Source of the DNA: Hormiphora californensis
Lineage: Eukaryota; Animalia; Ctenophora
Direction of reading: 5' to 3'
DNA length: 64,000 nucleotides
Assembly: GCA_020137815.1 (NCBI GenBank)
Contig: CM035360.1
Coordinates: forward strand, 3,472,001 to 3,536,000
Positions 19,028-31,000 of this stretch are shown here, piece by piece; the stretch's first letter is position 1; each line of letters begins with the position of its first letter. A model generated the notes under the pieces. It had not been told where the DNA came from. It ran no database searches and worked only from the letters and a program-made list of their open reading frames with translations. Made by a program: the position numbers and the translations under genes.

Positions 19028-22000
19028 TCACTGGGGTAAAGAGTTGAGACGAGAGAAAATTTGGACTTCCAAATCGTAGTCCTTGTGTAGTCTAGCTCTT
19101 TCTGATGTCCTCTTTCCCTTTTCAATCTGAAGGAGAATAATGTGTTAGATCCTCAAAAATATATTCCAGCGAAAATAATTGCAATTACAGACCTAAGAAA
19201 TGGAAAAGCGACTAATTGAAATAATTTTCTACCTGGTTTGTGTAGAAGTATATCTCTGTCAGTTCACATAGGGTAGCCACACAAATATAGTTATCCCGAC
19301 TATTTGGTTGGTTTATATTATCTGCAACCTGAAACGCCTGCAGGAGGATAATGGGTCAATAGCTGTTAGATGTAGATCGGATAATTATGCTTACTTTCGG
19401 AACTTTAACAGAAGGATGACCGATAATCGGTATTAATTAGGAGACATGGATTTAGTCTACTGCTAGTGAGATAACCATTACATACCTGCTGTGCTCTACT
19501 AATAGATTCAAGGTGAAGCCAGGCTTGCCCAAGAAACAGGTAACTTGAGGCCAGGGAGGCTGGGGTGAGGTCTTGAGGACGATCTAGGAAAAGGGTTCTG
19601 TTGAGATAAATATATCCCTGATAAATGTTGAGTCGCTTCAAACTATGTCCGTGCTCCGCAAGATAAATGAACTAATAAGAAGTCAAAATGTCCTATCAAA
19701 AATATCTATAGTTAAACCAGTAGCTAATTTTGGTGATGACACGGCCCTAGTGGAGGGGGGACCGCGTCACCAATAGCTAATTGGTAACTCACTTTCAACA
19801 GTGTGCACCATGAACTCTGCTTGTTGCTCTGTGAATGTGAGGTATCTCCAAATGTAGAGGATCTCCAGTGCAGCCAGGTGACACTCATACCGCAGATCAC
19901 TACCCGTCGATATGCAGTTAGCCTAGTCAGGGAGGTGGGTAGTTATGTAGCTATAAATCTTAGAACTATACAAGGGTTGCCATTGGTTACGAAGTCACCC
20001 CTTTTATTGCATACATGAGCAATAATAACAGAGGGGTAATTTCATTACCAAGGTTGCCAAGGGTGTACCAAAGCATGTTCCGATCCCAAAAATAATCAAA
20101 GGAGACTTGGAAAGGAAAGCATGTCAGAGTAACGGCAAAAGTTCTATCCCTCTTTTACCCTTTTTGCCTTGCTCGACCATATTTCACCGCACCCCACTCC
20201 GTGTGGGCCACACGGGAAACTCTTTAATAAATGTTAAGGTTAGAACATAATAATTACCTTTCTGATACAATAAGATTCCAGTTCTTGATTCATAGTTTTC
20301 TTGTAAAGTCCAGGCAGCTCCTTAAAAAGGTGCTTACTACCCTCTGGTCTCTCACTGGCTCCCATACACACTGATGAGGAAAATAGGTGTTAGAAATTAT
20401 GTATCTGATAAGACTGATTTAGACCTTCTGTTGAATACAAGGACCTTCTGTTGAATACAGGGAAAGGGGGGGGGGGGGTGACCGGGAATCTCTTGAAAAA
20501 AGAGGGCTGGCTGTGGTCATTTATTTGGAGGACGGAAGTAAGCATGAGATGAAACTTAGTAGTTAGTTACCGGGAAAGGCTTTAGGACTGTAACTCACCT
20601 GGACAGTAACTCGAAAGTGAGTTATTGTCCGAAAATTGGCGTCTACTTTTTTTTTTCTGGTGACTTTCTGTCCGCATTATTTTCGACTTTTTGCTAGGAC
20701 AAAAAGTCGATAGCTAGGACAAAATCTCGAAATTTAAACTCACCTAGGTGAGTTATGCGGACAATAACTCGAATTTTGTTTCGAGTTGGCGGACAGAAAC
20801 TCACTTGCTAAAACTACGAAAATGTCGAAAATTCTGGTGACATTTTCATTTTCCATGGCAGGTGAGTTTCTGTCCGGCTAATGAAATAGGTTTCCAAACA
20901 GGAGTTTTGAGTTTTTTTGTGCTAGCTATCATAATTACAAGAGAAACAAGTTCAAGAGTGGTTGACATAAATACACTGTAAAACCCATCTCCCATCCCTT
21001 TCTCTATTTCCCTTCATATCTCTCTTTCCCTCTCTCTATCTCTACCTCCCTTCCTCTCTCTTTTTCTCTCTCGCTCTCTCTTTTCCTCTTTCCCTCTCTC
21101 CGTGCTGCTCTTCAGAAACAGATGATGGAGTCATATTATAGGATCGGACTGGACTCAGTAGAGAGAAGTCTTGAGTCGTAATTGCATAGTGGGTATGGTG
21201 TGGATAAGGAGGAAGGATCCACAATCAGTAGGTCTCGCTGTGATAGATTGTCGAGGATAGGTGGGTAGCTATAGGCAGGTCGGGAACAGATTGAAGAGGA
21301 GAAAAAACCACTGCGAGTGATGAACAGCTCTCTTTGTCTCTCCATCTCTCTTCCTCTCTCTTTGTCTCTCCATCTCTCTTCCTCTTTGAACGGTGTGATA
21401 GATTGTCGAGTGAAGGATAGGTGAGTCACTGAGTAGGAGAGCAGCTGCAGCCTGCAGCTAGGCTGGTTGGGAACAGATTGGAGAGGAGATATAGACCACT
21501 GCAGGTGATGAACGATGACTCATTGGATGACTCATTGGATGAGAGATCCGAGATGGGAATTAAGCCCGGGAGCTAGAGAGACAAAGAGAAGCAGAGCTCA
21601 ACCAATGTATGAGTGAACAACGAGAACTGAACTAGCCCGCCCTTTCTCCCCTCTCGCTCTCTCTCTCTCTCTCTCTCTCTGTCAGGCTCTCTCTACAACT
21701 TTGCATCCCTCTCTCTGCCAACGACGCCGCCATGTCTTCCCGCCGTTTTCTCTCTATGCATGAAGTGAGTTCTAGTCCGGGGTGGGCGGACTCTAGTGCT
21801 AACGGACTCTTTATCTAAACTCAAGGCGGACTCTATATCTAAAACCGGACTCTTTATCTACAGTTAGACTTTGAAAAAAGTTTAGATAAAGAGTCCGCCC
21901 AGTTTAGACTTTTTAGATATAGAGTCCGCCCTGTGTAGACTTTTTAGACATAGAGTCCCCTGGTACATTTTGGCGCCAAATCCCCCAACCCGGACTCTAT

Positions 22001-28000: not shown

Positions 28001-31000
28001 ATAGGTGAGTTAGTGTCCGCCCGGACTCTAACTCACCGTAAATAGTGCTAAACAGTGGGGCGGACAGAAAGTCACCTGATCCGGACTATAACTCACCTAA
28101 ATTCGACATTTTCAAAAGTGAGTTATAGTCCGAAATTTTCGAGTTCGAGTTCGAGTTATCGTCCGTTCGAGTTTCTGTCCGGTACCCCTAGTACTATGCA
28201 TTTCTGAGAAAAGGGAACTCCAGTCACGCACACTTCTTGAAAACTACCCACCGGCAGCTATTTGCCGACCATACATACATCATTATTGTTACCATAGGAA
28301 GTGGTATTATACCCCGACCATACCCCCACGCATGCTTGTACAACCACACAAAATAATGGTGATTTAATTTTACCGGCGGCAGTGTGAGGATGCCTCATAT
28401 TTCACATGTTATAGATATGAGATGCGCGCGCGATCCACCTATCAAGTCAGTACCCGCGCGTTACAGAGTTGTACAATCCAGATCCCTGCTGCTGTGCAGT
28501 TGCGGGGGTCGGGAGTGGAACTGGAATGAGCTATGTCGGTATAATTCATAATACTGGGAATTTATGGACTACCAAGTATTGGGAATAAACTGGGAAATTT
28601 ATGGGAATCGGGGAATGAGTATTTAGAGATCGTAAGAGATGGATTATGGAATGAGAGAATGGAAGCGACCCTGAAAAGTGAAACCGGAAGTAGACCTAGG
28701 AGACGATATAAGAGAATATAGATGATGACTATGTCAATTTGGAGTGATATATACCTGCTGCTAGATAAGTATACAGTAGTTTCGACCATTTCGCCTCATT
28801 TCGCATACTGAAAATACACTGATAAGTACCATTTATCATACATTCTGAGGTCATAAAATGCAAGAAAGAAAGGCGAGTATAACGGAAGTGGTACTTACTC
28901 AAGAAATATGTCACTTGCTGCCCCCCAGTTCCAATTTATCATGTGACAAAGGCCTGAGAGAATGGAGAGTGGTTAATAACCACTGGTTATATATAGTGGC
29001 ACCATACACGTCACGATATGACGTCACGAAATGACGTCAGCAACATGACATTAGAACCTATTTAGTGCGACCTTATAGACCCTAAATGAAAAACTGGGGA
29101 CAGAAATATGAAAAAGTTTGCAGATATTACCTATTTCGTAGTAACTGAGGATTTTGATTTGCTTTAAATGGGCTGCCTTCATCGCACACATCTTGAATCC
29201 ATCTAGAGCAGGTCGGTATTGGCCCTGGATGGGGGGATATGTTAGTTCGGTATTGGCCCTGAATGTGGGGGGTTAGGTCGGTATTGGCCCTGGAGTGGGA
29301 GATGTTAGATGTGACTAGTGAATGTCCGATGTAAAAGAGAAGAGAAGGAATTCCAAGTTGGATAATTTCGGGATCTAAACATTTCGATAGTTTGGGCAGG
29401 GCGCCAAGGACAGTTTGACAAGAATAATGTTTAGCAATATATTTTCTATTCACAATATTCGGCCGGTCTAATAAAGAGGAAGGCGTGTCTGAAAGGATAC
29501 CGCAATTATACCTTTTCCTATTTGTCAAAGAGATTGATATCTCTCAGAACATGATCACTACCAGTCATTATTTGAAGTCATGTGAAATGAGTTCATAATT
29601 TGATGTCATGTGAGAAGTATCCATCGTTTGGTATCGCGTTAAATAAATTTATCTTTTGATGTCGTGTGGGATGTCTCTTTATATATTACCTTTAGTTTCG
29701 CCATGTGCCCCCTGAAATAGTGATCTGCCCAGGTATCTTTTACTGAGTCACCCATACCACTGAGGAGCGTCTCTGCGTTGTTTATCCCTGGATATATACG
29801 GGATGAGGGTTAGAGAGTTTAGGGGTGATGGGGTAAAGGGTTTAGGGTAAAGTTGAGAGAGGGTGAGGAGAGTGTAAGAGTAACATTTGAATAGTGCCTC
29901 TGCATTGCTTATCCCTGTATGGGGAGAGGAAAAAGTTTACATGTTCCTGCAGCCGTGAAATTAATGTTTCCTGGTATCGCCTACTTAGAACGCCGCGTCG
30001 CCGCACGATGTGGGGCCAGAGGTAGTAAGAGTACTAAGCGGGGGGGGGGGGGGTATTTTCAAATAGTTTCCGCTAGATTAGCGAATTATCTTATCGAGTA
30101 ATTACACGCTTCGTCGCATTATAATAAGTGTTTCAAGCACTTTCTTGCAATATCACTGGTGAAAATGGTTGAGCACGGTTGAGCAATGCCAGTGAAAATG
30201 AGCTTTGAAACTGGCCCCGGAAGTGAAGATAAAATTAGCGAGAAGGTAATTACAGGGAAGGTAATTGTGTAATTAGATAATGGTTTGTCTGAGCTGTGAG
30301 AGAGAGAGAGATATCACCGGTCGTCTAGTTCAAACCATTAGCTCAGATTTACTGGTCAGATCTCCTTTCCTCTTTGCAGATCCACTTGAAGATCATATCA
30401 TTTGTCTACTGTGACGGTGCATTAGAAGTCTTTAACTAGACACTGCCGTAGTATTTCTTAGCTATCCTACTGTTCTAATTCTAGTTCTGACTTCTGTTAG
30501 AGTTGACTATTTAGATTGTGTATTTTTCGGTTCCCAGTTTAAACTCGGTCTTTTGCACAACAGCTGTCTCTTGAGTCTTCAACAGCTGTCTCTTGAGTCT
30601 TCACGGTCAGTCACTCTTTACTAAATTAGTAAATTCTTTCTTCCATCATTCACTCTTTCCTAAATCAGAGCTGATAAAGAGTCTTTAGATGACTCATCCA
30701 CCACACCCCCACCGTCCTTCCATTATAACTCTCCGCTCTTGCAATAATTATATCTATTAAGTAATTCCTAGATAATTGGCCGGATCTCTCTACTCCAAGC
30801 TCCAAATAGAACCAACTCTCTTGTTAGTGCCTTTCGTTTTCTCTCCCTCTCTCTAGCTTTCTCTTTCTCTCTGGAGTAAGACAATCAGTTAAAATCACGT
30901 GATAGACAGCTACTAATGGTATTATTAGTGCACTCTGGGACTAGCCACGCTGAGTAAAAGGAATAATGATTGTGAGAGAAGGGGAGAGAAGGGGAGAGAG

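Follow-up and report, generated by a model that had tools for sequence, protein, structure and literature searches.

How a long interspersed nuclear element (LINE) rebuilds its 5′ end at each cycle is the question raised by a stretch of 64,000 nucleotides (nt) of the ctenophore Hormiphora californensis (GenBank assembly GCA_020137815.1, contig CM035360.1, positions 3,472,001 to 3,536,000), hereafter the window, where two LINE copies begin with the spliced leader (SL) that the host adds to RNAs by trans-splicing. The proposal under study is that whole clades of ctenophore LINEs have no promoter of their own, are expressed only by read-through from host genes or flanks, and owe both their excision and their cap to trans-splicing at the final AG of the integrated leader. 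We find this proposal unlikely in its full form, and its strict promoter-less, intron-fed version is doubtful too. The reading that we prefer, to which we give a probability of about 0.5, is that SL-headed copies replicate and are re-headed by trans-splicing, so that host splicing probably renews the leader.

Spliced leaders at the 5′ ends of LINEs

Both SL copies of the window have no mismatches over 41 nt, and two matches were obtained in none of 100 shuffles. One of them, at 27709-27667 on the minus strand, heads an intact LINE (copy B, 23215-27709, minus strand) and is identical, in 43 of 43 nt, to the last 43 nt of the 44-nt H. californensis leader as given in the passage of PMC8527503 that describes it, as well as to the exon of an SL RNA gene in a metagenome contig (L012:1-1945). 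The other, which retains 42 of the 43 nt, lies at 3692-3733 (minus strand) and heads copy A, a member of a distant family that occupies positions 1-3691 of the same strand and whose reverse transcriptase (RT) is about 30% identical to that of copy B. In both elements the SL is single rather than tandem, as the original prediction had noted.

In the SL RNA gene, the SL is followed by GTAAG and lies within a 778-bp tandem repeat with 5S rRNA, and the SL RNA is predicted to fold into three stems (z -3.87). The base before the exon is a C and the exon begins at AG; thus, the G with which the published 44-nt leader starts has no template in this gene, and a 5′ G on cDNA would likely come from the cap or from the library method, marking any capped RNA. 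Consequently, the non-templated 5′ G that had been suggested as a sign of re-splicing at copy B, whose SL is complete, does not discriminate.

Metagenome contigs were searched with an exact 33-nt SL pattern that leaves the first 10 SL bases free, and 18 matches were found in 17 contigs: seven LINE heads, assigned by homology of open reading frame 1 (ORF1) and of the endonuclease (EN) and RT, three heads of single-ORF elements, six mRNA-like sequences (four with host Pfam domains) and two matches in the SL RNA gene. Leaving the mRNA-like sequences aside, 10 of 12 matches are, therefore, heads of likely retroposed elements. Neither EN nor RT was seen in the single-ORF elements (L009, L014 and L015, of which L015 ends in a (TAA)n tail), which are not included among the seven LINEs and are probably non-autonomous elements with ORF1 only. 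Together with the two window copies, these heads number 12, in at least five junction types, and all 12 end exactly at the end of the SL exon, i.e., at the SL donor base. No stacked SL relics were observed in any of the 12 heads, where four contigs have less than 30 nt upstream and could not show stacking. Hence, in LINEs of several families the junction lies at the splice end of an exact SL exon, and SL heads are widespread in these ctenophore elements. The SL pattern had no matches in viral contigs, and an ORF1 alignment (A3) yielded no relatives among 142 and 181 pattern matches in the viral and prokaryote collections. A protein model that joins a short N-terminal piece to a related ORF1 (P0006) is a prediction alone and was not used as evidence.

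Proposed leader renewal and its alternatives

SL-headed copies are likely sources of new copies, and the evidence for this comes mostly from the relatives of copy B (family B). The window was compared with assembled contigs of four of 15 sequencing runs (X3, X5, X7 and X15; among the others, X8-X13 had small shares), which lose rare variants and show no transcription starts; X3 is possibly from the same sample as the window. In X3, unique intron DNA has a depth of about 50 per haplotype (48.5+47.3; 49.5+55.5; single contigs 56-77), and an unbranched contig of 856 nt (26821-27676), which runs from ORF1 through the junction and 10 nt into the SL, has a depth of 484, indicating that about 8-10 haplotype copies are SL-headed. 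No branch towards an outron was found at 27666 among these copies, which represent family B in one sample. The depth at the 3′ end of the family (487-554) is close to that on the 5′ side, so most family B copies reach the 5′ end. Additionally, a deletion form (489 nt, 25878-26366) is present at a depth of 214, or about four haplotype copies, which suggests more than one source. Another multi-copy deletion form of the family (24588-26503, depth 1894) was seen in X5, and contigs that lack a single base at the junction with the SL (27666) occur at depths of 247 in X3 and 4961 in X5, probably from a sister family.

The SL also looks renewed. At least 40 of its 43 bases are kept in 10 of the 12 heads (L015 has 38 and L011 has 35), with a mean loss of 2.2 nt, as expected if a full SL had lost its end in a single round rather than by cumulative erosion; without repair, terminal losses would be expected to accumulate over cycles. 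Three elements with a common junction (L002, L005 and L017) have ORF1s that are 59-61% identical and share 25-30 of the first 33 nt behind the junction, and their SL is unchanged, a result that is biased by the exact-match pattern except for the free first 10 bases. Moreover, a DNA contig of X5 has the SL joined to 27630, right behind a TAG of the copy B leader (27631-27633, minus strand, at +36), with 36 nt skipped. Its depth (316, compared with 358 for a single locus) and structure agree with a further round of trans-splicing, at a different acceptor, within family B.

In the cycle that we prefer, LINE RNAs carrying the host SL would be reverse-copied into DNA, and an RNA that later runs through the old SL would be recognised by the trans-splicing machinery. 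The last AG of the SL would be the first one met by a scanning spliceosome (a model cited in PMC2018619), because the SL is 77% A+T and has AGs solely at positions 1-2 and 42-43. The old SL would thus serve as the outron end and be swapped for a fresh SL, a replacement that would restore the few 5′ bases lost per reverse transcription, and a downstream YAG would sometimes be used in place of the last AG. As to the precursor RNA, read-through from the host or flank would account for about half of this reading, and a promoter within SL plus leader for the other half.

Several observations weigh against this cycle. In the original prediction the AG at the SL end could act as acceptor, and its being a good one is not supported: the SL ends in GAG, a triplet that ranks last among acceptors in competition (PMC2018619), and the 25 host introns that were annotated by hand and frame-checked end in CAG (20) or TAG (5), never in GAG (one edge of a last intron was off by a base, which leaves its CAG unaffected, and an MCTS1-like trial intron was excluded from the count). 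All 12 leaders contain at least one YAG, and in 11 of the 12 heads an unused downstream YAG lies within the first 114 nt of the leader or less; in L009, L010 and L015, a TTTCAG or TTTTAG is found only 6 nt behind the SL and should win under routine re-splicing. Either the short products are dead ends, since the leader is needed, or re-splicing is rare. In copy B, furthermore, the last AG of the SL is predicted to be paired with a probability of 0.97, as opposed to 0.87 in shuffles, and the cis donor of the host intron is situated 1045 nt upstream of its SL; in Schistosoma, according to the sections on trans-splicing in PMC5832876, intron acceptors receive the SL even where a donor lies upstream. 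An exact 33-nt pattern misses any heads whose SL has drifted, 216 loose contig ends of X3 lie outside the comparison that revealed no outron, and the X5 joint could be a deletion between two AGs, as its short side measures just 27 letters. The runs gave no RNA support either: X15 covers the SL alone and none of the LINE body, from which silence should not be concluded, and the cover in X7, which may be DNA, is of low depth and extends to 15 of 30 bins. In summary, the original interpretation is partly supported, in that SL-headed copies look like sources and the SL looks renewed.

The unused YAGs would be expected if these were ordinary LINEs whose internal promoter, within SL plus leader, directs transcription from SL base 1 or its vicinity; each family would have captured the SL once or rarely, and selection would keep it without renewal. 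Most LINEs, as a rule, have an internal promoter, and 77 nt can suffice for it (PMC1874656). The distance of 44 nt from SL to ATG in copy B had been taken to leave little room for a promoter; the distance is correct, but SL plus leader amount to 87 nt, compared with the 77 nt of the L1Tc promoter (Pr77), and the leaders of six metagenome relatives of copy A reach 145-215 nt. The conservation of leaders would also be explained if they contained a required element, for example a promoter: the first 100 nt are 78-79% identical among L002, L005 and L017, compared with 69-71% along the elements, and L010 and L015 are alike in 26 of 33 leader nt with no detectable ORF1 similarity. Pairing between SL and leader exceeds that of shuffles in three of the 12 heads and in none of the six mRNAs; as a general feature, an SL-leader hairpin was rejected, given that it is limited to these three heads, two of which are related. 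The Ascaris SL exon is said to be a promoter element, and a literature search for an SL-exon promoter turned up no paper. For dinoflagellate retrogenes, a promoter derived from the SL has been proposed in the passages of PMC5585692 dealing with them. Nevertheless, at least five separate captures would be required, with 33-43 nt unchanged in every lineage found, the small and terminal-only 5′ loss would still need a repair route, and the X5 copy suggests that RNA of the family still meets the trans-spliceosome. We consider an internal promoter with rare capture unlikely.

Two further explanations dispense with the GAG acceptor. SL-headed copies could be dead-end daughters of source elements that have their own promoter and outron, an alternative already raised by the original prediction, which accounts for both the fresh SL and the alternative acceptors and for which human spliced integrated retrotransposed elements (SpIREs) offer a precedent of spliced dead ends in the portion of PMC5860796 on these elements. 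This is quite improbable, as no branch departs from the SL in the X3 copies, and the multi-copy deletion form and the junctions shared at 59-61% ORF1 identity would each need a hidden master; the SL-headed copies themselves look like sources. Alternatively, the SL might be attached outside the spliceosome at each insertion, by template jumping of the reverse transcriptase or by ligation of the RNA to a free SL exon. Such joining would deliver a fresh SL without an acceptor, and an unassigned X3 contig (27679-27709, depth 31), in which a full SL is preceded by a partial one and a single base, indicates that the enzyme may jump from one SL-bearing template to another. Joining of this kind has a precedent in U6/L1 chimeras. 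It is, however, highly improbable, since all 12 heads end at the end of the SL exon and the lone alternative junction follows a YAG, as predicted by splicing.

The host intron and other features of the window

Copy B lies in an intron of 8384 nt (GT..CAG, 20371-28754, minus strand) of a TTC39-family gene, between exons assigned by homology at 28755-28807 (upstream) and 20258-20370 (downstream), both on the minus strand. Four exons around this intron are open over 105 amino acids (aa) and align without gaps and collinearly with a TTC39-family protein, P0141 (residues 370-401 upstream of the intron and 405-440 downstream), and PF10300 was matched by one of six single host exons tried. Copy B and the gene share the minus strand, and both the intron and the sense orientation described in the original prediction appear real from the alignment; the feeding of LINEs by host introns that was built on them is drawn from one copy (B). 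Another protein, P0011, was discarded as a reference because it is a garbled model that ended short of the intron, a search of the PDB with a TTC39 exon gave one match, by chance, and the host exons are uncovered in runs X15 and X7, which is not evidence of silence. Other genes of the window are found at 8288-11959 (+), 14296-17010 (-) and 35018-35874 (+). They comprise host genes, with checked frames, that resemble those of pyrroline-5-carboxylate reductase and of a core subunit of cytochrome bc1, and a short gene that starts like a signal peptide and may be nested in antisense in the TTC39 gene.

With regard to its own structure, copy B has the features of a non-LTR (long terminal repeat) element of the apurinic/apyrimidinic endonuclease (APE) type: EN and RT in ORF2, an upstream ORF1, a repeat tail, no LTRs and a target duplication. 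Behind the SL (27667-27709, minus strand), the leader (27623-27666) carries TAGs at +36 and +43 and is predicted to pair with the SL. It is followed by an ORF1 of 420 aa (26360-27622), read as an ORF, which is Cys-rich and has weak motif matches that presumably correspond to PHD-like and CCCH-like motifs; an Atlas search gave leads to zf-CCCH alone, all of them below 0.9. The ORF2 frame (23346-26558, 1070 codons from stop to stop, unbroken) matches PF14529, PF03372 and PF00078 above the cut-off. The 3′ tail, as read from the sequence, consists of two 10-nt units (23215-23234), and all these features are on the minus strand. A 3-nt target duplication (TAG) has its 3′ copy at 23212-23214 and its 5′ copy at 27708-27710 (minus strand), the empty site being provided by the uninterrupted arm of a palindromic repeat; since this TAG overlaps the first AG of the SL, the first two SL bases may derive from the target. 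The repeat (22435-27871, arms of 298 and 164 nt), whose right arm is interrupted by copy B, resembles a miniature inverted-repeat transposable element (MITE). It is one of several long, near-perfect and MITE-like palindromes of the window, the others being at 39773-40904, 53222-53446 and 61738-62683; the arms in this set are 97-100% identical, and two of its members are related to each other.

Copy A has a leader of 140 nt and an ORF1 of 412 aa, and its ORF2 continues past the window edge; between its group and that of copy B, ORF2 identity is only about 25-33%. By their motifs, copy B is tentatively assigned to the CR1 clade and copy A to L2. No clade-named RT reference appears among the 120 matches listed, where named relatives include unannotated proteins of Mnemiopsis and Bolinopsis with 53-54% identity. 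The copy A leader ends in a conserved TTTTAG-G-ATG, and five elements have GTGTTTTAG-G-ATG directly before ORF1 (window 3549-3560, minus strand, L002, L004, L005 and L017). Judged by its sequence, GTGTTTTAG-G-ATG is a canonical acceptor that could be the source of a short SL-headed mRNA for translation. In another group (L009, L010, L014 and L015), a leader motif is common to the first 45 nt behind the SL and the ORF1s are mostly unrelated; TTTYAG is retained by three of them and missing from the L014 leader, as though splicing had taken place behind it. A 5′-truncated LINE end, related to the copy A group (64-67% in RT) and with a (TTA)n tail, is located at 5183-6260 (+).

Related systems and meaning

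SL-bearing retrotransposons have already been published for flatworms. The passages concerned describe partial leaders at LTR and LINE elements of parasitic species, 597 loci in number (PMC12582326), and SLs at genomic retroelements for six genes (PMC5832876), and the leader in genomic DNA was read there, as here, as integrated trans-spliced RNA. In contrast to these side remarks on partial leaders, the ctenophore SLs are near-complete and head intact elements of many families, and they add evidence on the status of the copies as sources. In the dinoflagellate retrogenes with relict SLs, according to the sections of PMC5585692 devoted to them, the SL is also found in DNA and an AG in the old SL was proposed as acceptor. 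The lack of stacked relics and the mostly autonomous carriers set the ctenophore heads apart from those passages; as the ctenophore SL has no internal AG, re-splicing would replace it instead of stacking. Similarly, human SpIREs derive from spliced LINE RNA that was re-integrated, but the account in PMC5860796 that bears on them concerns cis-spliced dead ends with unspliced parents present, and no such parent was seen for family B in X3.

A further parallel is found in R2 and L1Tc, which are released from co-transcripts by a ribozyme like that of hepatitis delta virus (HDV), as described in the relevant part of PMC3383444. In both cases the 5′ end is cut from a longer RNA by a signal that travels with the copy, and L1Tc adds an internal promoter to its ribozyme, as in the hybrid version proposed here. 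The differences are that cutting, and capping in addition, would fall to the host trans-spliceosome, and that the flanks of SL-headed LINEs differ among loci, with no fixed target site seen. An Rfam scan of the window gave no family at gathering score and no HDV-like ribozyme, although a diverged ribozyme could escape it. In Hydra, about 30% of long reads of transposable elements carry an SL (PMC12220107), and 718 leader copies were counted in the Hormiphora genome (PMC8527503); the passages in question do not link genomic SL copies to LINE 5′ ends, and many of the 718 copies may be retroelement heads. Among the titles and abstracts listed in searches of the open PMC and bioRxiv literature, none dealt with a self-renewing SL cycle of LINEs.

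LINEs must rebuild their 5′ end at each cycle, and the routes described in the papers considered here are an internal promoter and a self-cleaving ribozyme. If SL renewal is true, it would be a third route, one that adds a cap and repairs 5′ loss, and many of the 718 leader copies of Hormiphora that were left unexplained would likely be accounted for by it. If the promoter-less version were also true, the host spliceosome would do for these elements the job that is done by the ribozyme for R2. The survival of transposons would thus be linked to a mode of splicing that recurs in several animal and protist groups.

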